Positions 1,798 to 51,695 of a DNA stretch of 64,000 nucleotides are shown here, piece by piece. The notes beneath the pieces are model-generated. The model did not search any database. It was not told the origin of the DNA and worked only from the letters and a program-made list of their open reading frames with translations. The stretch comes from a virus: positions 49,960-113,959 of the IMG/VR virus record IMGVR_UViG_3300024262_000018; one strand, given 5' to 3'. Numbering within the stretch: position 1 is the stretch's first letter; each line of letters begins with the position of its first letter. The position numbers were made by a program, and so were the translations under genes.

Positions 1798-2592
1798 ATG
1801 AGAAAAAGAACAAATCCCATCTGGAAAGTAGATATAAAAAATTTTGTTAAAATAATTGACGAATCTAATACTATATCAGAAGTTGTAGACAAGATAGGAA
1901 TAAAAGGTAGATATAGACAAACCTGTTGCAAAACGGTTGTCCGAAGAGCAGAAGTTGAAAAAATATCTTTAGACGGTTTACGAAAACGTTTTAAAAAATA
2001 TAATAAGAACTTTTTAGCAAACATTAATAAAGAAAAAACGATACCGCTTAAAAAAATACTTATTAATAATTCACACTACAACCGTGGGCATCTAAAAGAC
2101 AGGCTAATAAAAAATAAAATACTTAAAAACGAATGTGCTATTTGTAAACAAAAACCGAAATGGAACAATCAAATCCTCGTAATGGTTCTAGATCACATTA
2201 ATGGCGTAAAAAATGACAATAGGTTAAACAACCTTAGACTATTATGTCCCAATTGCAATAGTCAACAATCTACATTTGCAGGACGAAATATTAAAAAACA
2301 ACGAAAATTAAAAAAGTCAGAAATAAACCCAGAATGGAGAAACGCATGCCGCCCAAAAACCCGAAAAGTTAAAAGACCAGATAAAGAAGAATTACTTAAA
2401 TTACTATGGGAAATACCAACCGCTCAACTCGCTAAAAGATATGGAGTAACAGACAAGGCTATAGAAAAGTGGTCAAAAGCCTATGGTATAACAAAACCAG
2501 CAAGAGGTTATTGGGCGAAAAAAAGTAAAAGTGACAAAAAATACAATAAGCTTACAATAGGTTCAAATCCTTCCTGCCCTGTTACAAAGTGA
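1798..2592 (+). CDS. HNH homing endonuclease with C-terminal HTH
   Basis: CAIC...LDHINGVKNDNRLNNLRLLCPNCNSQ; C-terminal LAKRYGVTDKAIEKW. Confidence 0.85.
   Translation: MRKRTNPIWKVDIKNFVKIIDESNTISEVVDKIGIKGRYRQTCCKTVVRRAEVEKISLDGLRKRFKKYNKNFLANINKEKTIPLKKILINNSHYNRGHLKDRLIKNKILKNECAICKQKPKWNNQILVMVLDHINGVKNDNRLNNLRLLCPNCNSQQSTFAGRNIKKQRKLKKSEINPEWRNACRPKTRKVKRPDKEELLKLLWEIPTAQLAKRYGVTDKAIEKWSKAYGITKPARGYWAKKSKSDKKYNKLTIGSNPSCPVTK
2559..2581 (+). pseudogene. 3' tRNA fragment (T-loop plus acceptor strand)
   Basis: AGGTTCAAATCCTTC-CTGCCCT-G; same T-arm as the Gln tRNAs upstream. Confidence 0.55.
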
Positions 2593-2643
2593 AGCATTTT
2601 GATCTATAATATGATAACTAGCGTATCGAAGAAGGGAAAAACT

Positions 2644-3027
2644 ATGAATAAAGATTACGTTGCTAAAGCTAAACACCTTGCTCAGAAGATCCAGGACGAC
2701 AAACAAAAAATGCGTGAGGATAGTATTAAAGACACCAAAAAGTTTGTCGCAGCTACGACTAAAATGAGGGACAAAGTGAAAGCAGCCCTGATGCCATTTG
2801 ACAATCTCCCATTAAATAGCGGAAAATTGCATATCGTATCGGATGAGATATTGAATATTCAACTTATCCAACGTAAACCGAATGAGAAAGACATAGAACT
2901 GCTCAGTCTTGGTATATATCCTAATGAAATCGTATTTGCCTATCCGGCACATTGGAATTATAACACGTACAGGTCTATAAATGAGTTGTTAGACTTTATA
3001 GCGAAGTTCGTTTCCAAACGCTTATAA
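2644..3027 (+). CDS. hypothetical protein
   Basis: ORF with purine-rich RBS. Confidence 0.6.
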   Translation: MNKDYVAKAKHLAQKIQDDKQKMREDSIKDTKKFVAATTKMRDKVKAALMPFDNLPLNSGKLHIVSDEILNIQLIQRKPNEKDIELLSLGIYPNEIVFAYPAHWNYNTYRSINELLDFIAKFVSKRL

Positions 3028-3057
3028 AACCCTATACCACCATATTAGGAGAAATGA

Positions 3058-3594
3058 ATGTTGAAGATCAACGCTTGTAGTACAACTGATGAATTTGTTT
3101 TCTTTTGGGACAGTCTTTTCAGCCAGTGGTATTCTTGTGAATTTACAGATTATACCGACAAGACAGAATATGTCTCGGCAGAACAATATATGATGCGACA
3201 AAAAGCCCTTTTATTCGGAGATGAAGAAATAGCAGAAAAAATCATGTCTGCTAAGTCTCCCTATATATGCAAGTCTTTAGGCAAACAAGTCAAAAACTTT
3301 TCTAATGAAAAATGGATTGCAAATAGGATGTCAATCGTAACACAAGGTAATTATCTAAAATTTTCTCAGGATTTAGATCTTAAGAATACTTTAACGTCTA
3401 CCGGAGATAGAATTCTTGTTGAGGCTAGCCCTAAAGATAAAATATGGGGAATAGGACTAGATCGAAACGATTCTGCCGATACCATAGAAGATGTCTCAAG
3501 TTGGCAAGGATTAAATCTTTTAGGAATATGCCTCATGAACGTAAGAAGTCATTTCAAACTTATAGATAACGTTTTTGATGCCTGGAGAAATTAA
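3058..3594 (+). CDS. NADAR (YbiA-like) N-glycosidase
   Basis: FSQWY...SAEQYMM.QKALLFGD...KFSQ...LVEASPKDKIWGIG...GLNLLG. Confidence 0.92.
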   Translation: MLKINACSTTDEFVFFWDSLFSQWYSCEFTDYTDKTEYVSAEQYMMRQKALLFGDEEIAEKIMSAKSPYICKSLGKQVKNFSNEKWIANRMSIVTQGNYLKFSQDLDLKNTLTSTGDRILVEASPKDKIWGIGLDRNDSADTIEDVSSWQGLNLLGICLMNVRSHFKLIDNVFDAWRN

Positions 3595-20521: not shown

Positions 20522-20593
20522 GCTCATATCCGCTAACTGGTAAGCGAAAAGACTCTAAATTTTTTAATCGAGGTTCGAGTCCTCGTATGGGCG
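20522..20593 (+). tRNA. amber suppressor tRNA, anticodon CTA
   Basis: GCTCATA/TATGGGC acceptor, CGCT/AGCG D-stem, AAAGA-CTCTAAA-TTTTT anticodon arm, CGAGG-TTCGAGT-CCTCG T-arm. Confidence 0.85.
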
Positions 20594-20648: not shown

Positions 20649-20978
20649 ATGACTTAGCTTAACAATAACACGCCGTATATTTATATTATCACTCGAAAAG
20701 ACTTAACATTCCCACAGAAGGCTGTACAATCTTCTCATGCCGCAATTGAAGCCGCAAAAGCTTTTTATGACCCATCGGTTATAGATCATCCACATCTGGT
20801 TCTATCTGAACTCCCCTCTGAATTACATTTGCTCAAATTTATTAATAAATTATCTGCGGAGAGCTTGCGCTTTATTATCTGGAGAGAACCAGATCTAAAT
20901 GAGGTCACAGCGATTGCAACAGAACCGATTTTTGGAGCAAAAAGAAAACTTTTTAAGAAACTTCAACTTTTAAAATAA
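20649..20978 (+). CDS. Pth2-like peptidyl-tRNA hydrolase with in-frame TAG at codon 3 (absent from ORF track)
   Basis: AAGGAG RBS, ATG ACT TAG, then open to TAA 20976-20978: YIYIITRKDLTFPQKAVQSSHAAIE...WREPDLNEVTAIATEP...RKLFKKLQLL. Confidence 0.8.
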
Positions 20979-21895: not shown

Positions 21896-24800
21896 ATGAG
21901 ATACAAAATATCACAAGCAAATATGAGTATACAAGGACCAGCAGTTGTATCACTAATACAGATAGTACAACAAATGTATGGATTAGGGGCTCCAACGACT
22001 TTTGACGATCAAGGATTCAACAAAACAGACTATGTAAACTCTAATTTTCAGTATATTGCTCGGCTCCCAGTAAGTGATAGAACTCAACTGCCTATACAAC
22101 AAGCTGTTGCGGCTGTTCAGTCTTTAGGGAAATATAAAAAAACACAACTGGCGGGAACGTGGGAACAACTATATGCAGATATACAAAAAGCGATCAATGA
22201 AGCTCAAGGGCAATCGGAAGTTCCAAATACTACTCCTGTAGAGCAGAACAAAGTTTTATATAAAGGAAGAAACCGATGGGGGAATGATAGTTATTACATC
22301 TTCAGTTTAACACCGCAGAAATATAATAGTATGTTGCGTCTTGTCGGGGCAAAGCTAGGAGAGATGGGACAAAACGCATCGAACGCTTGGAAGGCTTTTT
22401 ATAAAGACAAAAAAGGAGGATTAGACCTCTACCAGATAGACCCACGATTTACTGTTTTCCTTAAAGATTTACTTGCAGGCTATGGCTACGATACGTCTGA
22501 AATGTTCATCCGCGATGAAAAAGCTGACGAAATAAAAAAACCTACAGAAGAAGATAGTGAATATAGTAAAGATGACATACAGAAATTTCAAATTAAAAAG
22601 GTAGAATTAGCGAACGGGAAATTAACAGTAATTCTAGGAAGATGGTCAACTCTCTGGAATGAGACTATACGAAATCTAAAAGAAAATTATACTATAGGCT
22701 ATAGTAAGCATGATCATGCCAGGATATTTACAAATCCAGATAAGGTTTTGATAACAACATTAATAAACGCATTAAAAAATGAATTTGACGTAGCCCCGTT
22801 AGAAGCATTATTAGAACAGGTCCCTGATAAAATTGATCAGCCAAAACCGGCTAGCCAAGTTATTATTACAGATAAGGGGATACAGTTAAATGTCGTAAAT
22901 GTTTTGGAGAACACTAAAGGAAAGTGGCATATTGCTATTTCATACTTAAAAAAAGGCACTAAAGAGGGCAAGACTTTATTAGATATTATAAAATTTATTT
23001 GTCCCGCTTTTGGAAAAGACGAAAGTAGATTTTCAGGGGTTATTCCAGACATCTCTAATCCATACGATCCAGCGGATAAAAAAGATCCTGATTATCCCGG
23101 CGATGGTGGCGGATATAACTATGCATATTTGATTAAAGGTGATTATAACCAATATAGACAGTTGAGTATGATATTCAAAAAATATGGATTTGACACCAGG
23201 AATCTTAATAAAATTATAGCAGGCTTAGTTTCCGAAGGTGTAGTAGAAACTACAAGAGTAGAAGGGGATCTGGATGGCTATCAAAAAGAAGTCGGCTTTA
23301 CTGACGCCGCCGGAAACAGAAGGACAACTAAAGTTAATGATCATGATAAGTTTATAAAAGAATTAGATACTTATAATAAAAAAATAGTTAAAGACGGCAA
23401 AGAATTTGATTTTGCTCTTTATCCTCTTCAACGCGAAGGCGTGGCCTTCCTTTACGGTAGAAACTCTGCCCTTTTAGGCGATGCAACCGGCGTGGGAAAA
23501 TGCAAAATTGGAACATCACATGTCCAAACAAATTTAGGAGACTTTGAAATCCAAGACATATGGAATAAATTTGCAAAAAAAATATCTTCCGTAAAAGAAA
23601 ATGAAGAATGGGGAGATCTAAATGTAGATTTATGCGTCCATAGTATTAATAACGACGGGAAGGTTGTTAGAGGAAAAGTAAATAAGTTGTATAGGGAAAG
23701 ATTTAAAGGAAAACTGATTAAATACAAAACAGATAATGGCAAAGAAACAGTTGTAACAAGAGCACACAAATTCTTAACTGAAAACGGATGGAAAAATGAC
23801 CTGTCTGTCGGAGATCGGATTTGTTCATCTTCAAATCAATTTTCTATACATGAGCCAAATAATACAAAAAAAGATCTTGCCTATTTAATTGCCTGGCAAA
23901 TAGCAGAAGGGTGTGAACTTGATAATAAAATACATTCTCAAACGAGCTTAAGTATAAACCAAAAAGATAAAAATATTTTAGAAAATTTATCAAAAATTAT
24001 CAAAAGCCTTAATATAACAAAATACAGATCAATAAAAAAGATAGAACCTAGAATTAAAAAAATAATAAGACATGGAAATCAGATTAATCGTATGGAACTA
24101 ACATCTGTTAATTATAAAAAATATCTTGAAAGTCTAGGATATGCATGGGGGCTAAAATCTAAAGACAGAGTTGTTCCAGAGTTTATTATGAATTCTTCGG
24201 ATGAGGTTGTGAAATATTTCTTACAAGCATTCTTTGACGCTGAAGGATACACTAGTAATCAAGCTAGAGGAATTGCCGTAACCTCAGCTAGTCAAAAACT
24301 CATTTATCAAATTTCATTATTATTACAAAGATTTAACATCTTTTGCACCTATAGAAAAATGATGAAGTGTTCCACAAACGGGACAAAAATAAAACGTCCA
24401 TATTATGAATTAAAAATTGTAGGAAGTGGCATGGATATTTTTATGCGAGAAATAAAATTTTCATATGTTTATAAAACTAAAAAATATAATAAATTTACTG
24501 ACGTAAAATATAACTATAATAAAGAAGGAAAACCCATCTATTTGGCGTTAGAACCGTTTTTTAAAAAATACAAATTGCCACCCAAAATAATAGGGCTTAA
24601 TGACGACGCCTATATTTCCGGAGACAAATGGATGAACGATGATAGTATAGAAAATGTTATTAATAAATTGAAAAAGTTTAGAAATTCTAAAATAATAAAT
24701 GAATATGCCCAATTAAAAAGATCAAAATGGACAAATTCGACAACTGCCGTTTTAGAGCATATAGAAATAAAAGATGTAGAAAACTGTATCCAATCACTAG

Positions 24801-26449
24801 AAAAATTAAAAAATAATGATCTTCAATATGAGAAAATAATTTCCGTAGAAGAGATCTCCCACGATGGATATATTTATGATTTAAGTATCGAAGAAAACCA
24901 CAACTATATTTCTGATAATTTAATTTGCCATAACACAATAGAGACTATCATAGCTGCCGATATGAGAATGAAAAATTCTGGCGGAAGCTGTTTAATAATT
25001 ACGCTTACCGTTGCTCAAGAACAATGGGCTAGTGAGATAGAAAAGTTTGCGAAGCATAACCCCGAAGACATATCTCTCAGTCCAGACGAATTAAAAACAT
25101 GGAATGTTTTAACATATCCTATGTTCCAAACCAAAAGTACTAGAGAAGCAACTGTTAAAAAATTACAAGATTATGTTAGAAGCGGAAAAATTACTTGCCT
25201 AATACTGGACGAATGCCATAGTGTTAAAAACAGTGGAGCATCTAGAACGGAAAATATACAAAATATATCTGACGTTATTGACGTAGATAAAGACAAGGTT
25301 AAATTAGCAGAATATCAAATTCCTTTTGTTTGGGGAGCGAGTGCAACTGTTGTTGCGAATAGGCCCGTTGACGTATATAACCAACTGAAGGCTATAAACC
25401 ATCCATTAGGTAAATTGAGCTTTGCTAATTTTGCCAAAGAGTTCGGAGGAATGAAACCTGGGCGTTATGGCTGGGAAGACACTAGTATAGAGGAACAGAT
25501 AAAAGCCGCGAATAAACTAAAAGAATGGTTGATAAATTTTGGGGTATATATAGCTAGAACCAAAAAAGATATTAGAGAAGATATGCCAGAACTTTATGTC
25601 GATGACGAATTTGCTCAAGTTGACCAGGCCAATTTATACAAGTGTGTAAGTTCAAAAGTCTCTGGATATAAAAAACCAGAATTGCCAATTTCTGTTATGA
25701 TGGCTACAAGAGACTGTTTAGCTCTTGCCAAAACTCCACATTCATTATCACTCGCAGAACCGATATTAAAAAGTGGAAAGAAAATAATGATTTTCACTGC
25801 TTTCAAAGCTGCTGCTAAGTATTTGGAATATGGACTGCAAAGAATACTAGATTCTATAGGAGAAGGGGGCCAAGTAGGAATTATAATAGGAGGGATGCAT
25901 AAAAAGACCAGGTCTGAAAATATAACTAATTTTAAAGATCCAAATAGCGACATAAAAGCTATGGTATTAATGATACAGGCGGGCGGAACGGGCTTAGATT
26001 TTCCAAATGTTGTTGAAGATGTTATAGAAAATGACTTTGATTGGACTCCGGCCTCTAACGAACAGATGAAAGGTAGAGGTTACAGAATAACAAGCAAATT
26101 GCCAGTTAGAATTAAATCTGTTATTGCGGAAGGAACAGAAGATGAAGACTTTAAACAAAGAGTTGATTCGAAAATAGAAGTTGCCGAAATCGTTATGAAA
26201 TTAACAAAAGAGCAATTAGAACTTTTTTCTTTATCAGAATCAGAAAAAACACAAAGTGTAAAAAATAGATTGCAAGATATAGAACAACAACTGATAGAAG
26301 CGGTTAAGCGACAGATTGAGCAAGAAGAAACGGAAGCGGAATTTGAAGAGCATATGGCTACTCAAATTAGAAATAAAATGGGAATGTCGGACAGAAGCAC
26401 TTTTGCTAAAACTAATTGGTATAGGAAAACTTGTTTTGGGAGAAAATAA
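21896..26449 (+). CDS. SNF2-family helicase with intein
   Basis: LYPLQREGV, GDATGVGK|T (motif I split by intein), LILDECH, SAT, GGTGLDF, QMKGRGYR. Confidence 0.88.
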   Translation: MRYKISQANMSIQGPAVVSLIQIVQQMYGLGAPTTFDDQGFNKTDYVNSNFQYIARLPVSDRTQLPIQQAVAAVQSLGKYKKTQLAGTWEQLYADIQKAINEAQGQSEVPNTTPVEQNKVLYKGRNRWGNDSYYIFSLTPQKYNSMLRLVGAKLGEMGQNASNAWKAFYKDKKGGLDLYQIDPRFTVFLKDLLAGYGYDTSEMFIRDEKADEIKKPTEEDSEYSKDDIQKFQIKKVELANGKLTVILGRWSTLWNETIRNLKENYTIGYSKHDHARIFTNPDKVLITTLINALKNEFDVAPLEALLEQVPDKIDQPKPASQVIITDKGIQLNVVNVLENTKGKWHIAISYLKKGTKEGKTLLDIIKFICPAFGKDESRFSGVIPDISNPYDPADKKDPDYPGDGGGYNYAYLIKGDYNQYRQLSMIFKKYGFDTRNLNKIIAGLVSEGVVETTRVEGDLDGYQKEVGFTDAAGNRRTTKVNDHDKFIKELDTYNKKIVKDGKEFDFALYPLQREGVAFLYGRNSALLGDATGVGKCKIGTSHVQTNLGDFEIQDIWNKFAKKISSVKENEEWGDLNVDLCVHSINNDGKVVRGKVNKLYRERFKGKLIKYKTDNGKETVVTRAHKFLTENGWKNDLSVGDRICSSSNQFSIHEPNNTKKDLAYLIAWQIAEGCELDNKIHSQTSLSINQKDKNILENLSKIIKSLNITKYRSIKKIEPRIKKIIRHGNQINRMELTSVNYKKYLESLGYAWGLKSKDRVVPEFIMNSSDEVVKYFLQAFFDAEGYTSNQARGIAVTSASQKLIYQISLLLQRFNIFCTYRKMMKCSTNGTKIKRPYYELKIVGSGMDIFMREIKFSYVYKTKKYNKFTDVKYNYNKEGKPIYLALEPFFKKYKLPPKIIGLNDDAYISGDKWMNDDSIENVINKLKKFRNSKIINEYAQLKRSKWTNSTTAVLEHIEIKDVENCIQSLEKLKNNDLQYEKIISVEEISHDGYIYDLSIEENHNYISDNLICHNTIETIIAADMRMKNSGGSCLIITLTVAQEQWASEIEKFAKHNPEDISLSPDELKTWNVLTYPMFQTKSTREATVKKLQDYVRSGKITCLILDECHSVKNSGASRTENIQNISDVIDVDKDKVKLAEYQIPFVWGASATVVANRPVDVYNQLKAINHPLGKLSFANFAKEFGGMKPGRYGWEDTSIEEQIKAANKLKEWLINFGVYIARTKKDIREDMPELYVDDEFAQVDQANLYKCVSSKVSGYKKPELPISVMMATRDCLALAKTPHSLSLAEPILKSGKKIMIFTAFKAAAKYLEYGLQRILDSIGEGGQVGIIIGGMHKKTRSENITNFKDPNSDIKAMVLMIQAGGTGLDFPNVVEDVIENDFDWTPASNEQMKGRGYRITSKLPVRIKSVIAEGTEDEDFKQRVDSKIEVAEIVMKLTKEQLELFSLSESEKTQSVKNRLQDIEQQLIEAVKRQIEQEETEAEFEEHMATQIRNKMGMSDRSTFAKTNWYRKTCFGRK
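23501..24934 (+). mobile_element. intein with LAGLIDADG endonuclease in helicase Walker A motif
   Basis: Starts CKIGTS, TRAHKF block B, IAWQIAEG and FLQAFFDAEG motifs, ends YDLSIEENHNYISDNLICHN|T. Confidence 0.92.
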
Positions 26450-31014: not shown

Positions 31015-34000
31015 ATGACAGAAACGATCAGCGATAATAAAACAAATCAATTTATAAACATGCCCGAGGTAGAAATAACTACAAGATTTGAAGATGTAAA
31101 AACCCAAACGACTGAAGATTATTTCCAAAATAATCAATTTTCTATTGACGCTTTTAATAAAAAATATACGCTATTCGATGGCGAGACATACGTTATGGCA
31201 ATAAAAAGAGTATGTGATTTTATCGCTTCAGCAGAAAAGACTAATAAACTAAAAACATATTGGTCAAACCGATGGTTTGATGAAATATATAATGACTGGT
31301 GGCACCCGGCAGGAAGCATAATGCAGGGAGCCGGATCAGAAAAAAAAATAAGCTTATCAAATTGTACGTGCATCTCCTTGGGTAATGAAAGACCAGATGA
31401 AGAGTGGGATAATCTAGAGTCTATTATTAAAAATTCGTCTTATGCTATAGCTAAAACCGCTGCTTATCGGCAAGGTTTAGGCATAGACTTCTCTCGCCTC
31501 AGGCCCAACAAAGCAAAAATAATGAACTCAGCAAACGAAGGGCAGGGCTGCACTCATTGGATGAAGTTTGCCGATTCTATTGGATATTATGTGGGACAAA
31601 AAGGAAGAATTCCTGCATTTTTATTTTCACTAAAATGCTCCCACCCAGATGTAGAAGAGTTTATAAAAATAAAATCCGATTATACAAAAATTCAAAATGC
31701 TAATATATCAGTACAATGCACAGATGATTTCTATAAGGCTATAGAAACTAATTCAGACTGGGATCTATCTTTTGAAATCCCAGAAGTTAAAATAGGACAA
31801 AAAGTTTATATTGACATTCATAGTACAGACATGGATAGTCAGTATGATAAAAAGAAAAAGAGATGGTATTATATCGCAAAAAAACATCGTCCTTTCGAAA
31901 AAATTTCCAAGAAGGTTAATGCTAAAGAACTTATGGAGCTTATCGCAAAATGCATGCATGCTAATGCTGAGCCAGGAATACAAAATATAGATATAGCAAG
32001 AAAATATTCAAACTCAGATTATGTTTATAATCCGGAAGATATATATGATAGTAGAATAGTAGGAACAAATGCCCCTCTTATCGGCTCTACAAAAATTCCT
32101 ACTAAAAACAAAATCACTACCATTAAAGAATTGTATGAAAAGTATGAGCAAGGAAATAATATTGAGTTAATATCTGACACTATTTCGTCTTTGCCCAAAG
32201 GGCATATTGATTGGCTGCAAAACAAAAATCAGAGAGGAATAAATTATTTCCCAACACAAACATTCCCCGTCCCAGCAAAAATTAAAAAATTCCCAAACCA
32301 AAAAGTTTGGAAAATTGTTTTGTCTAATCAAAAAGAGTTGTTCTGCAACGGAGAGCATTCATGGTTGGTTAATGGGGAAATGACACCAACTAAGAATATC
32401 AAAGCTGGAGATAAGATGTTCTCTCCCAACGGCGGGGTAGTTGATGCTTATGGTATTGAACCCAATTTTGAGTCTCAACCTTTTAAAGATGGCGAATTAA
32501 TTGGGTATATTGTTGGTGACGGCTGGATAGGAAAGAAAAGCAATATACATAATGAATCTATTGGTATTGTTTATGACGAAGATTGTGAATATTACAGTAA
32601 ATTATTCAGAAAGAAATTTTTTGAAATAACCGGAACATCTTTAAATTACGAAAGAGATAGAGGGAAGATTAAAGAAGTTAGAACAGAAAGCACTAAGTTT
32701 GTACAATGGGTAAAGTCATTTGGTTTTGATAAAAACAAAAACCATACTCCTGCACGATGCTTTGAAGATATTGATTTTTGCAGAGGTTTTCTTAGAGGCT
32801 TGTTCCAAGCAGATTCTCATGTAGAGCTTAGTAAACGTCAAAGTCGCGTAACCTTAACATCTGTTTCTAAATCATTAATTTTAGATGTAGAATCGTTGTT
32901 GTCTAATTGGTTTGGTATTTATCCTACGATTAAGGAATCAGAGTGTAGAGGAGTCCCATACGGAGATGGGAAAATCAGTAATGCAAAAAATAGATTCGAT
33001 TTACGTTTCGGAAGATATGATTTTATTGATAAATTTACAAAAAATGTAGGATTGATAGGTAAAAAGGGCGAGAAGTTATTTGCTGCATTAAAAAATAATA
33101 ATCAAAGAAATATTCGTAATTTCAAATTAGTCACTTCAGTAGAAGAAACAGATGATGTCCAAGATATGTACTGTGCTGTTGTTGATGGCATTCATTCCTT
33201 TGTTGCAAATGGATGTTTGTCCTCAAATTGTTCCGAGCAGTATCTTTCGCGCGATGGGCTTTGCGTTCTATCTTCTGAAAATATGGGGAGATTCGATACG
33301 GATCCGGAGATCTATGAAAAGCAACAGGAACGAATTTCCTATTCAATGAATAGATTTCTTGATGATGTTAATACAATGGAAATAAAGAGCGGGACTTATG
33401 CAACGCCATTTCAAAAAATAGGTATAGAAAAACTTAGAAGAACAGGAGCGGGGGTTACTAACATAGATGGGTGGCTGTTTAAAAAGGGATTACAATATGG
33501 AACACCTGAAGCTAATGAGGCCGTGGCTAAATTAATAGAAACGTTTAACTATTACCTTTATAAGTCTTCGATAGAAATTGGAAAAGAAAAAGGTAGTTTC
33601 GGGTTATTTGATAGGTCTAAATTCGAAAAATCTCCATTTATAAAAAGAATGATTGAAAAAGGTTTAATTTTTGAAACTATAAGAAATTGCACGTGCTCAA
33701 GCATCGCTCCAACAGGTACGATCTCTCTTATGTTTCGAGGGCTTGTTTACTCGTATGGAATAGAGCCGTCTTTTGGTGTCTATTTCTGGAAACGAACGAG
33801 GATGTCTGGCAACTATGAATATTATTTTTATGTTCCATATGTTGTAAGAGAACTATTAAAGAAATCAGGAATAAACCTCCCGATGGAAGGAGACTGCATA
33901 AAGGACACTATCGACGGGAAATACGGAAAACCAATTGCTAAAATAATAGACGAGGAGCTAAAAAATATAAATTTTAACTTTAAAGAATCTACCGAAATAA

Positions 34001-34857
34001 AAGCAATGGACAAATTAGATCTCATGGCAAAGGTTATGAAATGGATAGATTCATCTATCTCTGTCACTTATATGTTGCCAGAAAATTCAAAATGGCAAGA
34101 TGTATATGATTTTATTATAGAAGCCCATAAAAAAGAAGTTAAAAGTATTGCGTGTTTTCCTGATAAAAAAATGTATGGTATAGTCTCACTAATTCCATTT
34201 TTAGATTTAGCAGTAAATCTTACGAACGAAGGTGTAGAAATATCAGATCAAAATTTCTCCGAAGATGAGATAGATTTGTTAAAAAAACTGACAAATAGAT
34301 ATCAAGAGGAAAATGTCGAAAATAAAATAATAAAAACAACCGCTCCGAAACGCCCAAAATTACTTCCCTGCGATATGCATCACATTAAAGTTACAAAGAA
34401 ATTAGACAAAATAAGAACTTTTGATTATATTGTGTTCGTAGGTCTATTACACAACAATCCATACGAAGTTTTTGTTATGGAAAATGGACATATTAATAAA
34501 AAACACAAACAAGGAACAATAACTAAAAAGAAAAGAGGAGTTTATGGTGCGAATTTTGATGAGGAATCGATTGAAGATATAACATCTAATTCTTCCGAAA
34601 CAGAAGATATTTTAACCCGCCTTGTCTCTACAAGTCTTAGGCATGGGGCAGATATAGCCTTTATTGTAGAACAACTTGAAAAATCAGAAGGAGATCTATT
34701 CTGTTTTTCAAAAGCGATAAGTAGAGTACTAAAAAAATATATAAAAGACGGATCTGTTGTAAACGGAATAAGTTGTCAAAAGTGTGGGGGTAAAAATATG
34801 ATTAGACAATGTGGGTGTGCTGTCTGTGGAGATTGTGGATATAGCAAATGCGAATAA
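31015..34857 (+). CDS. nrdJ: class II (B12-dependent) ribonucleotide reductase with intein
   Basis: PAGSIMQG, NANISV, AEPG, TNA|CSEQ, RRTGAG, SIAPTGT, C-terminal TSCPD-like region and Zn ribbon. Confidence 0.85.
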   Translation: MTETISDNKTNQFINMPEVEITTRFEDVKTQTTEDYFQNNQFSIDAFNKKYTLFDGETYVMAIKRVCDFIASAEKTNKLKTYWSNRWFDEIYNDWWHPAGSIMQGAGSEKKISLSNCTCISLGNERPDEEWDNLESIIKNSSYAIAKTAAYRQGLGIDFSRLRPNKAKIMNSANEGQGCTHWMKFADSIGYYVGQKGRIPAFLFSLKCSHPDVEEFIKIKSDYTKIQNANISVQCTDDFYKAIETNSDWDLSFEIPEVKIGQKVYIDIHSTDMDSQYDKKKKRWYYIAKKHRPFEKISKKVNAKELMELIAKCMHANAEPGIQNIDIARKYSNSDYVYNPEDIYDSRIVGTNAPLIGSTKIPTKNKITTIKELYEKYEQGNNIELISDTISSLPKGHIDWLQNKNQRGINYFPTQTFPVPAKIKKFPNQKVWKIVLSNQKELFCNGEHSWLVNGEMTPTKNIKAGDKMFSPNGGVVDAYGIEPNFESQPFKDGELIGYIVGDGWIGKKSNIHNESIGIVYDEDCEYYSKLFRKKFFEITGTSLNYERDRGKIKEVRTESTKFVQWVKSFGFDKNKNHTPARCFEDIDFCRGFLRGLFQADSHVELSKRQSRVTLTSVSKSLILDVESLLSNWFGIYPTIKESECRGVPYGDGKISNAKNRFDLRFGRYDFIDKFTKNVGLIGKKGEKLFAALKNNNQRNIRNFKLVTSVEETDDVQDMYCAVVDGIHSFVANGCLSSNCSEQYLSRDGLCVLSSENMGRFDTDPEIYEKQQERISYSMNRFLDDVNTMEIKSGTYATPFQKIGIEKLRRTGAGVTNIDGWLFKKGLQYGTPEANEAVAKLIETFNYYLYKSSIEIGKEKGSFGLFDRSKFEKSPFIKRMIEKGLIFETIRNCTCSSIAPTGTISLMFRGLVYSYGIEPSFGVYFWKRTRMSGNYEYYFYVPYVVRELLKKSGINLPMEGDCIKDTIDGKYGKPIAKIIDEELKNINFNFKESTEIKAMDKLDLMAKVMKWIDSSISVTYMLPENSKWQDVYDFIIEAHKKEVKSIACFPDKKMYGIVSLIPFLDLAVNLTNEGVEISDQNFSEDEIDLLKKLTNRYQEENVENKIIKTTAPKRPKLLPCDMHHIKVTKKLDKIRTFDYIVFVGLLHNNPYEVFVMENGHINKKHKQGTITKKKRGVYGANFDEESIEDITSNSSETEDILTRLVSTSLRHGADIAFIVEQLEKSEGDLFCFSKAISRVLKKYIKDGSVVNGISCQKCGGKNMIRQCGCAVCGDCGYSKCE
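32074..33228 (+). mobile_element. class 3-type intein (Pro1) with LAGLIDADG endonuclease at the RNR active-site Cys
   Basis: PLIGSTKI...CNGEHSW...LIGYIVGDG...FLRGLFQADS...MYCAVVDGIHSFVANGCLSSN|C. Confidence 0.85.
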
Positions 34858-38898: not shown

Positions 38899-39275
38899 GA
38901 AAATATTTATTTTTCTTTAAGCTTTGAATTGTTTATGCCGAAGTACATATTAACAAAGCAGATTGTTCTTACTTATTCGGGTTTTACTTGTACTGTAAGG
39001 CATAGCCGAAAGTGAAAATCCAGTTGCCGTTAATGTTATAATACAAAGACGACTATAAAAGTATTATAATGAAGATTTCTGATAAATTGGGCGAGTTTCC
39101 AACAGGAATCCTACTTTGAACGGTGTCGTCAAGACCTAATAAGTATGCATTCGATTATATTCTTATTTTTCCACTTCCTATAAGGGGATTTTCTACCTAT
39201 TTTTTTCTCCGGTGTACACTGAGTACATAGAGTACATAAAAAAATATTTAAAAAATAATAAAAAAGAAACTACTA

Positions 39276-39300
39276 ACCGTTCTTGAAAAGAACGGTTTTT
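39276..39300. terminator. hairpin/terminator between convergent genes
   Basis: AACCGTTCTT-GAA-AAGAACGGTT followed by T residues. Confidence 0.6.
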
Positions 39301-39317
39301 GCGAGCGAAGCGAGCTT

Positions 39318-39683
39318 TTAAACGATAGGAAGTTCTACATTTCCAGATAAAACTTTATTTAATTGATATAATGAATAAATTTCAGCATCAAAACACCCGA
39401 AAACAATTAAAGTTTTATTTGATGTTTCAAAGAAATCTTTAATAATATCTTTTTGTGTTTTATTTGCTGGTTTTGTTAGTTGTATATTTAATTCTGAATC
39501 TTTTGTTTTAATGATGCGAATATAATTATTTTCAAAAGCAATTCTATAATACAGGATGGTTTTATCTTCTACAAACGGTATGTTAAATATTTTTGCAATA
39601 CTGTGAGCATGATCCTGCGCTGGAGATGTTATAAGCTGTCCATCAGGAGATAACCAATAACCAATATCTACATTATCTTTCAT
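39318..39683 (-). CDS. hypothetical phage protein
   Basis: GYWLSPDG...H...YIRI motif. Confidence 0.65.
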   Translation of the reverse strand: MKDNVDIGYWLSPDGQLITSPAQDHAHSIAKIFNIPFVEDKTILYYRIAFENNYIRIIKTKDSELNIQLTKPANKTQKDIIKDFFETSNKTLIVFGCFDAEIYSLYQLNKVLSGNVELPIV

Positions 39684-39756
39684 ATTTTCTATTTCCTATT
39701 ATCTTAGTGTTCTATTTGCTTCAATAAATACCTTTTGATTTTTTTAAAAATAAATA

Positions 39757-40056
39757 TTATAATCCGAGATTCTCATATTCCCATATAACTGAAGAAAGTT
39801 TATTATATGCTTTATGAGGACTTAATACTTCTGATAACAATAGACTTTTAGCTCGCTGTACGAAATTATTTATTTTTTCAGAAACAGACAGGCTTTCATC
39901 ATATTTTGATAAATAATTTTTAAGAACAGGAAGTAGTGAATCAATAGTCCCCATATCTCCTTTGTCAGAAGCTTTTGTTATACTCTCCATTACACTGCAA
40001 ATCCAGCGTTCTTGCGATGAAAGTGTTTCTTTGTTTTTTGTATACCAATTTGTCAT
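39757..40056 (-). CDS. hypothetical protein (N-terminal NWY motif)
   Basis: MTNWYTK. Confidence 0.6.
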   Translation of the reverse strand: MTNWYTKNKETLSSQERWICSVMESITKASDKGDMGTIDSLLPVLKNYLSKYDESLSVSEKINNFVQRAKSLLLSEVLSPHKAYNKLSSVIWEYENLGL

Positions 40057-40099
40057 TATATACCTATACTAAAACGGTCTAATATATCCTATAATAAAA

Positions 40100-41128
40100 T
40101 TAGATATCTAAACAAAAACAAGAGACATCGAATTTATTTTCTAATATCTCTATAATTTCAAGTTGAGAATTTTTATTCCTTGTTAAAATTTGAGCAGAAC
40201 CATCTCCTTGACTGCCTACTCCTTTTGCTCCATACATTAAATCTTGTATTGAAGACTCATATAAAATAGAATGCAATTTAGGGGCTATAAGTTCTTTTGG
40301 ACAATAAGAAGTTAAATATTGATCAAAATTATATTGAGATTGTTTCATTAAACTTCCTAATGTTTTAAAATCTCCGATTTTCAGGCATTTTACCGCAGAC
40401 ATTACGATTTTTTTATTTTCTATTCCTAAAACGCTTTGTTTTTTATAATCTTCATTTTCGATAGCAAATGGATATCCTTTATTGAGAGCAGACAGGATTC
40501 TGGGAGTGTTCTTTGACGCGTGCAAATCTACGATTATTATAAATAAATTATTTTTAATTTGTAGCGGTACGCTTTTTAATTCGTCCCCATCAAAAATCAG
40601 CAAAGTTGGTTTATTATAGGCGCACGACTGATCCATTTTTCCGCATCTAGAAGGCGTTGTGATTTCTCCTAAATAAGCCATTTCCATTTCTTGAGGAATC
40701 GTCCATCCTAAATTAAATAATGCGTTGTACGCCCTTGTGACAAGCACACAAATAGAAGCAGAGCTAGAGAGTCCCTTTTTAATAGGAAGTGTAGAATTAT
40801 AATTATCAATTTCTATTCCTGGCATATCTTTTTGGGTAAGAGATATTTGATATAGAGTTCCAGCAATATAATTATAAAAATCAGTAGATTTGGCTAGTTC
40901 TAGCAACTTATGAGGATCTAAGTCTATTTCTTTTATTAAATTATCTTTTAAAATGAATCTACAGACTTTTTTGCGGATTTTTTTTACTCTTGCATAATTG
41001 CCTTGATTTGTAGGGCAGACAATTGCATAGCCTTTTTCTAATTTTGAATTTTGACGACGATAACCGCCAGCCCAATCGCTATGTTCACCTAATAGACATA
41101 ATCTTCCGGGAACGAATAATTCAATCAT
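40100..41128 (-). CDS. GHMP-family sugar kinase (galactokinase-like)
   Basis: PGRLCLLGEHSD, LPIKKGLSSSAS, CGKMDQ, GAKGVGSQGDG. Confidence 0.88.
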   Translation of the reverse strand: MIELFVPGRLCLLGEHSDWAGGYRRQNSKLEKGYAIVCPTNQGNYARVKKIRKKVCRFILKDNLIKEIDLDPHKLLELAKSTDFYNYIAGTLYQISLTQKDMPGIEIDNYNSTLPIKKGLSSSASICVLVTRAYNALFNLGWTIPQEMEMAYLGEITTPSRCGKMDQSCAYNKPTLLIFDGDELKSVPLQIKNNLFIIIVDLHASKNTPRILSALNKGYPFAIENEDYKKQSVLGIENKKIVMSAVKCLKIGDFKTLGSLMKQSQYNFDQYLTSYCPKELIAPKLHSILYESSIQDLMYGAKGVGSQGDGSAQILTRNKNSQLEIIEILENKFDVSCFCLDI

Positions 41129-41204
41129 ATAATGCCTCTTTTATAAAGGATATCGCCAGACAAATAATAAACTATTAAATGTACACTTATTTATGGATTA
41201 AAAA

Positions 41205-41486
41205 ATGAACTGGTTTAATAAATTCTCACAACAACAATTCTCTCTTTTTGACGAGAAATCCTCTAAAGAAAAGCCAAAACCACAAGTTTCTATTTGGGGG
41301 CTAAGTCCGTCTGGAACTCTAACAGTAATAATAAACGGTAAGCAATACGAATATTATAATGTAACACCTCACGAAGAAAGTCAACTTAATAGTCTATTAA
41401 AACATAAAAATTATTCTAAGTTTTTTGCGATAATAAAACAACTAAGTGGAAGAGACATGAAAGAACCTTTTAAAAGAACATTATAG
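41205..41486 (+). CDS. hypothetical protein, possibly KTSC-like
   Basis: MNWFNKFSQ...LTVIINGKQYEYYNV. Confidence 0.5.
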   Translation: MNWFNKFSQQQFSLFDEKSSKEKPKPQVSIWGLSPSGTLTVIINGKQYEYYNVTPHEESQLNSLLKHKNYSKFFAIIKQLSGRDMKEPFKRTL

Positions 41487-41502
41487 GACAAAAGAAAAAA
41501 CT

Positions 41503-42222
41503 ATGATAAAGAATCTATTTCCATTATTAATTATTTTATTAATGACTTGTTCACTTACGGTCCAAAAAGCGGGCGGTGCCTGAGCGGGTAGCGGCTGTGG
41601 ACCCACGGGTGGTTCAACTCCAGTAAAACCGACTCCAGCTAGTTGTGCGGCCACATTCACAGGATGGAATATCGGTACTAATAATTCTGCTCCTACTGTT
41701 CTTCTAAATGCGGTTCCAAATAAAATGTCATCTATCGCAAGCTTTATAGCAAGCAATATTGACGATGAAAAAGCGAAGAAGGGAATACTTAATCCTATTC
41801 CGACTATTAATGAATTAGTCCCGATTTTAAAAATTGGCGATAAAATTAAAATAGATTTTGTATATGTTGGAAAACGATACTGGATAAATAGAGTAACGCT
41901 TCTGAATAAAAAGTCTTCTATCTATGATGATGCAAATAGCAGCAGCATATCATTTAAAACAGATAGTATTAGATTAGTTAAAAATAATACAAGACATGCT
42001 TTAAGAGTTACAAGAGGCACGCTATCATGGATGTTTTTGGTTCCATCTATAACGAAAACCGATACTAAAACAGGAAAGACTACTGAGATAAGCGACCCTA
42101 ATATCTTGGCTAAAATTAAACAATTTAAAACAGGAGAGAATGTTTTTATCGATTACGAGACGGTAAAATATACTTTTATTTTAAAAGATATTCGTCCGGT
42201 AAAAACAAAATCAAAAAAATGA
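41503..42222 (+). CDS. secreted protein with in-frame TGA at codon 27 (candidate selenoprotein)
   Basis: Signal peptide MIKNLFPLLIILLMTCSLTVQKAGGA, TGA 41581-41583, frame continues AGSGCGPTGG... into the ORF tracked from 41725. Confidence 0.6.
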
Positions 42223-42989
42223 AAATATTATTACTTATATTCGTTCTCTTGTTAGGTTGTGACAAAACAAATAATATGTTTTATTATTACAATGGAGAAT
42301 CTCCATCATTACCAATAGTGAGGAAAATAAGTAATTCTACAGTAGACATATATGATTATAAGAACGCAGGAACAGGTACAATACTAAAAAAAACAAAAGA
42401 ACATGCCTATATCCTTACTTGTGCTCATGTAATAGCAAACAGAAAGAGAAAACACACTCCTATATTCGATTTTAAGGCGTTAGGCCAATATAATATAACC
42501 CCGAAAACAACTTTTCTTGAATCCATTATTAAACCTCTTTTAGTAAAACAAACTAAATGGGTAGATGGACTGCCAATAACTTACTCACATAGTGCTGATA
42601 TATTTTTTCTAGATAGGTCGGTCGATATCTGTATCCTCAGAATAAATGGAAAAATTTATGGAGAAGAGATATCTCCATATAATAATAGTACAGTCGTTCC
42701 AACAGGAACAGAAGTTTATCATGTCGGTAATCTTTTTGGAAGTTTAAATTATTCTGTGACATCAGGGATTATTTCTCATAATTCTCGCGGATTATTTGGA
42801 GAAAGAATACAAGTAGATATAGATGTTACATTTGGTTCTAGTGGCGGCGGCATTTTTACAAAAGATAAAGGCGAATATGTCGGGATGGTGACCGAAAAAG
42901 CCACAAGGGATAGTAGTATTGCTATTATTATTCCTATTAAAAAGATAATAAAATGGCTCGAAGTTTACAGCGTCGAAAGAAATTTTTAA
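42219..42989 (+). CDS. trypsin-like serine protease, probable lipoprotein
   Basis: LLGC lipobox; LTCAHV, VDICIL, FGSSGGG. Confidence 0.85.
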   Translation: MKILLLIFVLLLGCDKTNNMFYYYNGESPSLPIVRKISNSTVDIYDYKNAGTGTILKKTKEHAYILTCAHVIANRKRKHTPIFDFKALGQYNITPKTTFLESIIKPLLVKQTKWVDGLPITYSHSADIFFLDRSVDICILRINGKIYGEEISPYNNSTVVPTGTEVYHVGNLFGSLNYSVTSGIISHNSRGLFGERIQVDIDVTFGSSGGGIFTKDKGEYVGMVTEKATRDSSIAIIIPIKKIIKWLEVYSVERNF

Positions 42990-46881: not shown

Positions 46882-46953
46882 GCGGGATTGGTGTCAACAG
46901 TAGCATAGGAAATTGCCTATTTTCAGGAATCAGTGCAAATCTGATATCCCGTA
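46882..46953 (+). tRNA. tRNA-Gly(GCC)
   Basis: GGAAA-TTGCCTA-TTTTC. Confidence 0.8.
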
Positions 46954-46986: not shown

Positions 46987-47808
46987 ATGCTAAGAGTTTT
47001 GGTAACAAGTGGCGGAACAAAAGTTAAATTAGATGATGTCCGGTCAATAACAAACATGTCAAAAGGGACATTCGGTGCTAAAATCGCAACTGAGTTCCTT
47101 AAAGCAGATCCGGAAATATATTTAACGTTTTTATCTGCCGAGGGAAGCAAAAACCCTTTCGATATAAATTGTTCAAGATATTTATCTCTTTGGCAAAATA
47201 TAAAAGAAGCTAATAGAGTTCGTAAATTCTATAATTCGCGTCGAACTCGTTATAGCGAAATTTCTTATAAGACTTATAATGATTATGCGGTAGAACTTAA
47301 AGGTCTTTTGGAAGGGAAAAGGTTTGATATTGTTGTCTTGGCTGCGGCAGTTAGTGACTATATTGTAGCTAATACAGTCGAGGGTAAAGTTCGCTCGACA
47401 GAAACTTTAAATATTGAACTAAAACCAGCCGAAAAGTTAATTTCTCAAGTCAAAAGTAAGATGGCTTTTCAAGATAACATTCTTGTTGGATTTAAATTAT
47501 TAGTCGGTAGCACCCATGAACAACTTATTCAAGCCGCTCAAAAAAGCATCTATGATAATGGATGCGATTTGGTTATCGCTAACGATTTAAGGGATATTCG
47601 TAACAGCAATCACAAACTAAGCATTTTAGAGCATCGTTCTGAACTTTATAATGGAGTGTGGAGTGATTCTATAGATCAATATAGCCATATTGACGCATTT
47701 GGAAAACCCCATGAAAATAATTATTTAGCATCTGTTGTAGCTAAAAGAGCGATTCATAAATGGAATAAAACTTTTGGACCGAAAGCGAGGCGAAAATATG
47801 GAGAATAA
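46987..47808 (+). CDS. coaB: phosphopantothenate-cysteine ligase (CoaB)
   Basis: VLVTSGGT...DDVRSITNMSKGTFG...LAAAVSDY...VGFKL...IAN. Confidence 0.88.
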   Translation: MLRVLVTSGGTKVKLDDVRSITNMSKGTFGAKIATEFLKADPEIYLTFLSAEGSKNPFDINCSRYLSLWQNIKEANRVRKFYNSRRTRYSEISYKTYNDYAVELKGLLEGKRFDIVVLAAAVSDYIVANTVEGKVRSTETLNIELKPAEKLISQVKSKMAFQDNILVGFKLLVGSTHEQLIQAAQKSIYDNGCDLVIANDLRDIRNSNHKLSILEHRSELYNGVWSDSIDQYSHIDAFGKPHENNYLASVVAKRAIHKWNKTFGPKARRKYGE

Positions 47809-48967
47809 AAAGAAAGTTCTTTGGGGTTTAACAGGATCAGTTGCAAGTGTTTTAACTTCTAAAATAACAAATGAAGCTCCTTGCAGATATGATGTTAAAT
47901 TCGTGGCTACTAAATGTGCCAGATCATTTTTCCATCTATCTCATGTAGACCCTCATAGTAAATTATATTTAGAAAAAGATGAATGGGAATGGACAGAAGA
48001 TAAAAATCAAACAACACAGATGAAAGAACAGGTAACAAAAAGATATTATACCTCAATACGAACAATTTGGCAAAAAGAGGATCCAGTTCTGCATATCGAG
48101 TTAAGAGACTGGGCAGATGTTTTGGTAATTGCTCCCTTAACTGCAAATACTTTAGCAAAAATGGCTAATGGCATCTGTGACAATCTATTAACTTCCATCG
48201 TAAGAGCGTGGCCTAGAGAAAAACCAATGGTAATTGCTCCTGCCATGAATACTGTTATGTGGGAAAGTCCATTTACAAAAGAACACATTAATAAACTTTC
48301 TAATATATATAATCTTAAAGTGGCTTGGCCAGTAGAAAAAGAATTAGCCTGTGGTGATCATGGCCTTGGGGCGATGGCTAATTTAGATACTATTTATGAG
48401 AAAATAGATAATGCCTTCCAATGGATTTCGCCAGTATCAGAATGTAATGGAATTCCTGTAGGTAAACATCCTGGGGCATTTGGCGTACAACGAAAGTATT
48501 CTAAACACTGCGGAGTTGATTTATATGTTAAGGATAATGTTACGGTTCACGCTATGGAACCAGGAAAGATTGTAGCAATTGAACCATTTACTGGTGCTCA
48601 AGATAATTCTCCTTGGTGGAACAATACAGAGTGCGTTTTAATACGTGGCCACTCTGGAAGAACTATTTGCTATGGAGAAATTACTACATCTAATCTCAAT
48701 CCGCCCTTGCGAGTAGGCCAATTTGTAACAAGAGGTCAATATATAGGGAATGTAATACCCGTTTTAAAAGAAGGCAAAGAACGTCCAGATATTCCTGGAC
48801 ATTCAAGATGCATGCTCCATATTGAACTTTATAAAAATAAAACAAATGTTCCTTCAGATGGTTGGGATAAAACAAAAGATATCGTTGGTTTAACTGATCC
48901 TACGCCATTCTTGCTGGACTTTTCCAATGGAAATTTTAAAAAATTAGAGATGACGGAAAATAAATAA
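47798..48967 (+). CDS. coaC: phosphopantothenoylcysteine decarboxylase (CoaC) fused to an M23 peptidase domain
   Basis: GLTGSVA, HIELRDWAD.LVIAPLTANTLAKMANGICDNLL, PAMNTVMW, LACGD.G.GAM; then HCGVD...HIE. Confidence 0.85.
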   Translation: MENKKKVLWGLTGSVASVLTSKITNEAPCRYDVKFVATKCARSFFHLSHVDPHSKLYLEKDEWEWTEDKNQTTQMKEQVTKRYYTSIRTIWQKEDPVLHIELRDWADVLVIAPLTANTLAKMANGICDNLLTSIVRAWPREKPMVIAPAMNTVMWESPFTKEHINKLSNIYNLKVAWPVEKELACGDHGLGAMANLDTIYEKIDNAFQWISPVSECNGIPVGKHPGAFGVQRKYSKHCGVDLYVKDNVTVHAMEPGKIVAIEPFTGAQDNSPWWNNTECVLIRGHSGRTICYGEITTSNLNPPLRVGQFVTRGQYIGNVIPVLKEGKERPDIPGHSRCMLHIELYKNKTNVPSDGWDKTKDIVGLTDPTPFLLDFSNGNFKKLEMTENK

Positions 48968-49440: not shown

Positions 49441-49537
49441 GTTAAAAGAAAATGATATATTTTCTAGCATACAATTGATATATAAATAGAGCGAAGAAAA
49501 CGTTTTAAGGGTGGAAGGTGTTGATCCGCCCTTATAC

Positions 49538-49608
49538 ACGCTCTTGGTGTAACAGCAGCACAGGAATCTCCAAAATTTCAAGCGAAAGTGCAAATCTTTC
49601 AGGGCGTG
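49538..49608 (+). tRNA. tRNA-Trp(CCA)
   Basis: GGAAT-CTCCAAA-ATTTC. Confidence 0.85.
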
Positions 49609-49615
49609 TTAATAC

Positions 49616-49705: not shown

Positions 49706-49819
49706 GTGGCGGTTGCATAATGGCAATGCAGCAGGAGACTTGAAAATGGTCTGTGGACATTATTTATACTGCGAGGGGTTAGACACCATCAAATATAGGT
49801 TCGATTCCTGTCCGTCATA
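49706..49819 (+). ncRNA. tRNA-like RNA with expanded central region
   Basis: GTGGCGG/CCGTCAT acceptor, GCAT/ATGC D-arm, ATAGG-TTCGATT-CCTGT T-arm, about 60-nt insert with no clean anticodon arm. Confidence 0.55.
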
Positions 49820-51623: not shown

Positions 51624-51695
51624 GGGCTTTAAACTTAGATAGCGAAGTAACACTCTTTTAAAGTGTAAAGGACAGTGCAAGTCTGTCAAGGCCCA
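51624..51695 (+). tRNA. tRNA-Lys(TTT)
   Basis: ACACT-CTTTTAA-AGTGT. Confidence 0.82.

Follow-up and report, generated by a model that had tools for sequence, protein, structure and literature searches.

The window analysed here, the whole 64-kb stretch of DNA, is the 3′ part of a single 113,959-bp IMG/VR virus contig from an uncultured phage. The locus under study contains a gene for a protein with two predicted OB-fold domains (termed here the OB protein), the reading frame of which includes a TGA at codon 27, followed directly by a gene for a putative protease. The features of the locus, together with three others in the window that bear on its interpretation, are listed below with their coordinates in the window.

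41503–42222, plus strand: the whole OB-protein gene, with 239 sense positions and a stop codon, and one in-frame TGA at codon 27
41503–41571, plus strand: predicted signal peptide, codons 1–23 (MIKN / LFPLLIILLMT / CSLTVQKA), from reading of the sequence and alignment
41581–41583, plus strand: the in-frame TGA, codon 27, with the same codon at 3269–3271 in the metagenome contig L001
41595–41608, plus strand: 5-bp hairpin CTGTG-GACC-CACGG with one G-U pair, 11 nt past the TGA
41620–42213, plus strand: two predicted tandem OB-fold domains, residues about 40–138 and 139–237 (AF2, Foldseek, VIA)
42219–42989, plus strand: putative trypsin-like (S1, Trypsin_2) serine protease with the lipoprotein signal MKILLLIFVLLLGC (Pfam)
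20522–20593, plus strand: phage tRNA with anticodon CUA, an amber suppressor (ARAGORN; Rfam tRNA, 54.6 bits)
20649–20978, plus strand: PTH2-like gene with a TAG at codon 3 (20655–20657) (sequence, Pfam)
49537–49609, plus strand: phage tRNA-Trp(CCA) with a U11–A24 pair in the D stem (ARAGORN structure)

The OB-protein gene opens at ATG 41503, where direct reading of the sequence gives MIKNLFPLLIILLMTCSLTVQKA followed by GGA. The first of these segments comprises a basic n-region, an 11-residue hydrophobic core and a V-x-A site of the signal-peptidase-I type, and from the sequence and the alignment cleavage is predicted directly after VQKA. The signal-peptide-like N-terminus described in the initial annotation of this DNA is thus present. 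TGA-27 lies four residues past the predicted cleavage site, within a Gly-rich linker that is predicted to be disordered. It forms part of the motif U-AGSG-C, in which the codon for Cys32 is located at 41596–41598. Beyond TGA-27 the frame is open until the terminator TGA at 42220–42222, so that the in-frame TGA, the open frame and the motif are all as that annotation had reported. The first in-frame ATG, GTG or TTG downstream of TGA-27 is at 41725. A lipobox at Cys16 was rejected because the residue is Phe in the homolog P0002 and in L001, while lipoboxes at position 27 or 32 were rejected on the grounds that the hydrophobic core is too distant and the residue at −3 is poor. Frameshifting at the TGA-27 site was also rejected, as the +1 frame meets a TAA after 14 codons.

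Homologs and structure prediction together support a single gene for a predicted exported tandem-OB-fold protein. Homologs of 239–240 aa span the full gene, with 76% identity for P0002 and P0005 and 37% for P0004, and in three lineages the 239 codons contain no other stop or frameshift. A profile search brought in about 30 further, more distant family members, mostly longer and from GC-rich organisms, and in distant homologs the signal peptide is fused in the one frame. Six of the distant, longer proteins (P0010, P0011, P0019, P0022, P0023 and P0026) share a conserved G-[VI]-D-A-[VL]-[TS]-x-A-T just past the N-terminal hydrophobic segment, and have an extra C-terminal domain with a WL[DE]xI end. 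The OB protein has no family in Pfam or PHROGs, and its leads in the ESM Atlas were all sub-threshold. A tblastn search against 50,697 phage records found no homolog, and no relatives were found among viral contigs searched with patterns for the OB protein, the protease and a GHMP kinase as well as at the DNA level. Among genome contigs the protein patterns gave no match and the DNA pattern gave 17 matches, about the chance expectation, none of which encodes the OB protein. A protein search for shorter versions of the OB protein found nothing.

The AF2 model of the OB protein has a mean pLDDT of 83. Residues 1–36 are predicted to be disordered, with pLDDT below 50, and values exceed 90 across most of residues 41–232. 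In the predicted structure this region adopts the five-stranded closed β-barrel that defines the OB fold. Foldseek matches the model to tandem-OB proteins such as HIN-200, Teb1, LEF-3 and SSB, which share the predicted arrangement of two OB barrels. The VIA Z scores reach 10.5 for single OB folds (with an RMSD of 2.1 Å over 82 residues for the Rim1 SSB) and lie at 7–9 for many others. The predicted barrels also resemble those of periplasmic single-OB proteins, CusF/SilF and the B subunits of AB5 toxins. The phage protein differs from known OB proteins in its lack of a Pfam or PHROGs family match and in its signal peptide; given such a signal, it is unlikely to act by binding nucleic acids.

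On record, the gene is called only as a 165-aa product from 41725 (P0003), and the initial annotation had allowed that homologs might begin there. The corresponding residue, Met75, is Thr in P0002 and Lys in L001, and in the AF2 model a start at this position would delete strands 44–60 and 63–72 of the first OB domain (OB1). As Met75 is unconserved and a start there would truncate OB1 by two strands, 41725 was rejected and the upstream ATG at 41503 is taken as the true start.

The ATG of the downstream gene overlaps the stop codon of the OB gene as ATGA. Its product matches Pfam Trypsin_2 (PF13365; 3e-17, 64 bits against a cut-off of 27.6), with the domain located behind an LLLGC lipobox, and H56, D122 and S194 are invariant across an alignment of 10 homologs. 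By the Pfam match and the His, Asp and Ser residues it would be an S1/Trypsin_2 serine protease. No Shine–Dalgarno motif lies upstream of the protease gene, whereas many other genes of the phage have one. The ATGA overlap, the Trypsin_2 match and the lipobox bear out the earlier proposal that the OB gene is translationally coupled to a lipoprotein protease gene, at the level of sequence. Protease homologs have 55–78% identity, two of them appear from matching sizes and source to share contigs with truncated OB gene calls, and the gene pair thus appears conserved in at least two other lineages. The OB protein may be an envelope-located binding partner or modulator of the protease. Elsewhere in the window, 47774–48967 is a single ORF in which a flavoprotein (CoaC/HFCD-type) domain is joined with an M23 peptidase domain. 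Upstream of the window, the minus strand encodes a lipoprotein-like ORF (LGLASSVLYGC) at G000:C1 11822–12516; it includes a Pro-rich tandem repeat (SPRLTP ×4) and was missed by the codon-usage gene set.

The TGA can be followed into a second contig. Among the metagenome matches listed, L001 (Ga0307379_10086195) is syntenic with 39212–41765 at 78–83% nucleotide identity, and has a TGA at exactly codon 27 despite a pS of about 0.4–0.56. Between the window and L001 the pN/pS ratio is 0.38 for codons 1–26 and 0.49 for codons 28–74; over the N-terminal 87 codons it is 0.44, significantly below 1 (Fisher p = 5e-4). The in-frame UGA is therefore conserved between these orthologs, and its read-through is needed to make the protein. 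L001 also contains an extra 382-aa gene (2018–3163) that is absent from the window, located between a 93-aa ORF and the OB gene; its product has an N-terminal CxxC pair, a TM segment and a vWA-like DRSGSM motif.

These data bear on the possibility that the TGA has no function, being a nonsense mutation in a decaying gene, a sequencing error, or simply the end of a separate 26-codon ORF upstream of a gene starting at 41725. The recorded 165-aa gene call would agree with the last of these. Moreover the pN/pS of 0.44 exceeds that of three neighbouring genes (about 0.2), and chance retention of an unselected TGA at such divergence is not rare, with a probability of roughly 0.2. However, because a separate metagenome contig shares the TGA and pN/pS is significantly below 1, with purifying selection on both sides of the codon, a sequencing error or decaying pseudogene is unlikely, and the sequencing error that the initial annotation had raised as a danger to its reading is not borne out. 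The frame free of further stops and frameshifts in three lineages, the unconserved Met75 with the truncation of OB1, and the signal peptide of distant homologs in the same frame also stand against a trivial origin, which we consider highly improbable in all its forms.

The protein-database entries of the closest full-length homologs, P0002 and P0005, show W at position 27, and in P0004 a Gly is aligned to this position in a gapped region of the linker. The linker around the site is variable and Gly-rich across the family. The recorded W could correspond either to TGG or to a TGA translated under table 4. P0006 is a 92-aa call from the internal Met148 that falls in the same 90% cluster as P0002, and its contig and that of a protease homolog come from the same source and are both 3548 nt in length. 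This truncated call and the shared contig suggest that there is an upstream in-frame stop under table 11, and that the W derives from a table-4 call. On the other hand P0002 and the window protein end at the same residue, and in the window the stop there is TGA. Under table 4 the call would continue past that TGA, so the end of P0002 favours table 11 and mildly suggests that the W is encoded by TGG. The initial annotation had held that Trp in homologs would contradict its proposal of selenocysteine. Trp is nominally what P0002 and P0005 have, but it may stand for TGA under table 4; neither outcome supports selenocysteine. The same annotation called for homologs with TGA or Cys at the site. TGA occurs in L001, but none of the full-length homologs has a Cys aligned to UGA-27, which is a weak test as few sequences cover the site.

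About 10 distant members of the family are recorded as N-terminally truncated calls that start with Met where their relatives have Val (for example P0007 at V120, P0008 at V71 and P0013 near position 53), and other calls, such as those for P0009, P0012, P0014 and P0018, begin inside the linker. Such calls could mean that 5′ in-frame stops are common in the family, or they could arise from contig ends or from the behaviour of gene callers. If the truncated calls (P0007–P0009, P0012–P0018) reflected the same in-frame stop, then recoding could be family-wide.

The contig as a whole uses TGA as a stop. CheckV estimates that it is about 26% complete, giving a genome of roughly 440 kb, with a GC content of 33% and at least 32 tRNA genes in the contig (ARAGORN, Rfam); the nearest TerL, at 24% identity, is in a 485-kb uncultured phage. 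In a crude set of 128 ORFs (table 11), used for the stop and codon counts, there are 86 TAA, 22 TAG and 20 TGA stops, with many of the TGA codons in ATGA overlaps. The coding density in table 11 is 90%, and the large apparent coding gaps hold ordinary ORFs or tRNAs. Pairs of ORFs in the same frame that are split by a single TGA prove from their domains to be separate genes. TerL and a portal-like ORF, both upstream of the window, are intact and have no in-frame TGA; a general recoding of TGA in late genes was therefore rejected for this portion of the genome. The helicase and ribonucleotide reductase genes of the window (21896–26449 and 31015–34857) each contain an intein with a LAGLIDADG domain.

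If the host read UGA as sense throughout, either as Trp (table 4) or as Gly (table 25, as in Gracilibacteria/Absconditabacteria), no special decoding of codon 27 would be called for; with Gly the segment would become AGGA-G-AGSG, a natural Gly-rich linker. The composition of the linker and the Gly aligned in the gapped region of P0004 would suit such a host, P0004 was binned with a CPR bacterium, and the genome is AT-rich. Yet there is just one in-frame TGA in about 34,000 codons, compared with 489 in-frame TGG codons in the contig and about 2,000 Gly codons. Some 20 genes end in TGA exactly at their boundaries, many in ATGA overlaps, and the OB gene itself is terminated by TGA. Given the table-11 density, the TGA stops and the distinct domain content of the TGA-split ORF pairs, a host reading TGA as sense under table 4 or 25 is very unlikely, and we regard it as the least probable of the readings discussed here.

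In the initial annotation UGA-27 was read as selenocysteine, inserted by host SelB and tRNA-Sec under the direction of the hairpin at 41595–41608. The mature N-terminus would then be GGA-U-AGSG-C, in which Sec27 and the conserved Cys32 could form a selenylsulfide. The hairpin exists as described, with arms CTGTG (41595–99) and CACGG (41604–08) and the loop GACC, and it overlaps the conserved codons of Cys32-Gly-Pro-Thr; in L001 it is TTGTG-GACC-CACGG. As in bacterial selenoprotein genes such as E. coli fdhF there is a single in-frame UGA in a standard-code genome, with a hairpin having a G-initial loop downstream. The spacing is fdhF-like in both DNA sequences, with 11 nt to the stem and 16 nt to the loop. 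The UGA is site-specific and conserved, and the Cys at +5 is kept in three close lineages and absent, like the UGA, in P0004, which fits a U/C pair.

In folding and resampling tests the hairpin is nevertheless no better than chance. Its fold z-scores are +0.4 to +1.5 against dinucleotide shuffles, and when the peptide is re-encoded by resampling of synonymous codons, a SECIS-like hairpin of equal quality arises in 34% of cases. The actual 45-nt MFE is weaker than the mean of those resamplings. By estimate from the window and L001, codons 32–38 have 1 synonymous change where about 2.6 would be expected, a difference that is not significant. The GC-rich patch noted earlier is present, but GC3 within it is not significantly raised and it is accounted for by Gly, Ala and Pro codons, that is, by amino-acid composition. 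An Rfam search with E values up to 10 matched neither a SECIS nor any other element at this position, so the SECIS prediction that had been suggested as a check gave no match to any such family and a hairpin that is unremarkable against resampling. A search of the 114-kb fragment (~26% of the genome) turned up no tRNA-Sec, SelA, SelB or SelD, and a literature search found no published phage selenoprotein. Unlike the bacterial genes, the phage gene has no Cys homolog, and its UGA is in a disordered, variable linker beside the signal-peptide cleavage site, not in a structured redox motif. With Sec at position 27, the exported protein would have three Cys-like residues, an odd number; the entries for P0002 and P0005 have W there; and the second stop-gated gene, by the amber-suppressor tRNA (see below), points to tRNA suppression instead. 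Selenocysteine at UGA-27 is thus not supported, and we judge it to be unlikely. The special residue would indeed lie close to the mature N-terminus, four residues past the predicted cleavage site; it is its identity as selenocysteine that lacks support. Taken as a whole, the earlier description holds for a gene of an exported protein, coupled to a protease gene, in which a UGA must be decoded, but is not supported for the amino acid it proposed. Were selenocysteine nonetheless present this would apparently be the first bacteriophage selenoprotein, as far as we have found, and would extend selenoprotein biology to phages.

A second gene of the phage has an early in-frame stop, and is adjacent to a suppressor tRNA. 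The PTH2-like gene follows 55 nt past the tRNA(CUA), where a strong ribosome-binding site and the early stop read AAGGAG-N6-ATG ACT TAG, and its frame is open to 20978. The Pfam PTH2 match begins at residue 12 and covers profile positions 4–113 of 115 (E = 2.5e-4), with a score of 21.7 bits that is just below the cut-off of 23. A scan for early stops placed the next in-frame start 57 codons downstream of the TAG. As the TAG lies directly behind the tRNA(CUA), the phage would seem to use suppression of early in-frame stops. A third candidate from the scan, at 46933–46944, was rejected as an ordinary intergenic region ahead of a normal start with a ribosome-binding site.

Thus a suppressor tRNA matching the stop is present for TAG. 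For TGA, no tRNA(UCA) was found by ARAGORN or Rfam in the 114 kb (~26% of the genome), and the contig has no release-factor gene. The phage tRNA-Trp(CCA) is a candidate near-cognate reader of UGA. It has a normal 5-bp anticodon stem, and the U11–A24 pair places an A at position 24; in E. coli the Hirsh suppressor of UGA is a tRNA-Trp with the substitution G24A (PMC11805395). The U11–A24 pair is common among tRNAs, and so is not by itself evidence of suppression, leaving this tRNA as a lead. Two tRNA-Gln genes of the window (UUG and CUG; 1531–1615 and 1627–1711), each 85 nt long, possess long, paired variable arms, an unusual feature in a tRNA for Gln, and reach 36 and 21 bits with the Rfam model of tRNA-Sec, short of its cut-off. 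A further two genes, at 51624–51695 and 49706–49819, were found by Rfam and missed by the default ARAGORN run; one is a tRNA-Lys(UUU) and the other is a 114-nt tRNA-like sequence with a long insertion and an ambiguous anticodon.

The interpretation that we prefer, and whose chances we consider to be evenly balanced, is that selection maintains UGA-27 as a gate, passed by suppression or read-through with Trp as the probable residue, that throttles production of the OB protein and of the coupled protease. By this mechanism most ribosomes would terminate at UGA-27, releasing only a 26-residue signal-peptide fragment that we propose to be harmless. Full-length protein would be made only when a tRNA reads UGA-27, most likely as Trp. 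The reader might be an opal-suppressor tRNA encoded in the remaining three quarters of the ~440-kb genome, or the near-cognate tRNA-Trp(CCA), a copy of which the phage itself encodes. The stop at codon 27 would act as a gate of dose or timing. It would also limit the lipoprotein protease, because that gene lacks a Shine–Dalgarno motif and starts within the stop codon of the OB gene, and ribosomes halted at codon 27 would never arrive there. We infer the decoding tRNA, the amino acid, the role in timing and the effect through coupling. According to the model the inserted residue should not matter, as position 27 is within the disordered residues 1–36, in the variable Gly-rich linker; the W recorded in P0002 and P0005 is consistent with reading of the UGA by tRNA-Trp.

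A gate is favoured by the same TGA codon in L001, by the purifying selection on both sides of it and by the lack of a plausible alternative start. In addition TGA is otherwise a genuine stop in this phage, and there is a second gated gene, with a TAG, behind the tRNA(CUA). Against it are the lack of a tRNA(UCA) in the 114 kb, the TerL and portal-like genes without an in-frame TGA, and the conservation of the Cys at +5. The published route to stop-codon recoding in phages passes through low GC, TAA-dominated stops and the gain of a suppressor tRNA, after which in-frame stops initially appear in late or lytic genes (bioRxiv 10.1101/2021.08.26.457843). The profile of the present genome fits that route.

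If the gate is real, then stop suppression would be used gene by gene, with TGA here and TAG in the PTH2-like gene, while the standard code would apply elsewhere in the genome. The drift model for alternative codes predicts an intermediate of this kind, for which there has been little direct evidence so far. As a test case the locus would be both small and clonable, at about 60 codons. There is also a consequence for annotation, in that standard gene callers cut the protein to 165 residues and its export signal is lost.

The closest parallels are with known read-through and recoding systems. In Qβ the short product is the main functional protein, and read-through appends a C-terminal domain. 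At the present locus, by contrast, the short product would be just the 26-residue signal peptide, and all function would therefore rest on read-through. The likeness to the A1 read-through coat protein of Qβ and to the Hirsh tRNA-Trp G24A (PMC11805395) would lie in the low-efficiency reading of UGA as Trp to give a minor, longer product, and with the Hirsh suppressor in the A24 of the tRNA-Trp(CCA) that the phage itself encodes.

In the stop-codon-recoded phages, where TGA is reassigned to Trp or TAG to Gln, suppressor tRNAs delay the expression of late and lysis genes (Borges et al., bioRxiv 10.1101/2021.08.26.457843). The present phage is similar in being a large low-GC phage with TAA-dominated stops and an encoded suppressor tRNA, and in having in-frame stops in genes whose products, here an exported protein with an envelope protease, would be harmful if made early. 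It differs in the scale and the location of its in-frame stops. Recoded phages have many such stops and a low coding density in table 11, whereas here there are just one in-frame TGA and one in-frame TAG in 114 kb at a density of 90%. Both stops are at the extreme 5′ ends of their genes, the structural genes in view are unrecoded, and no opal suppressor was found in the contig. The phage looks like a case of single-gene gating, or of the earliest stage of recoding, and not of a changed code.
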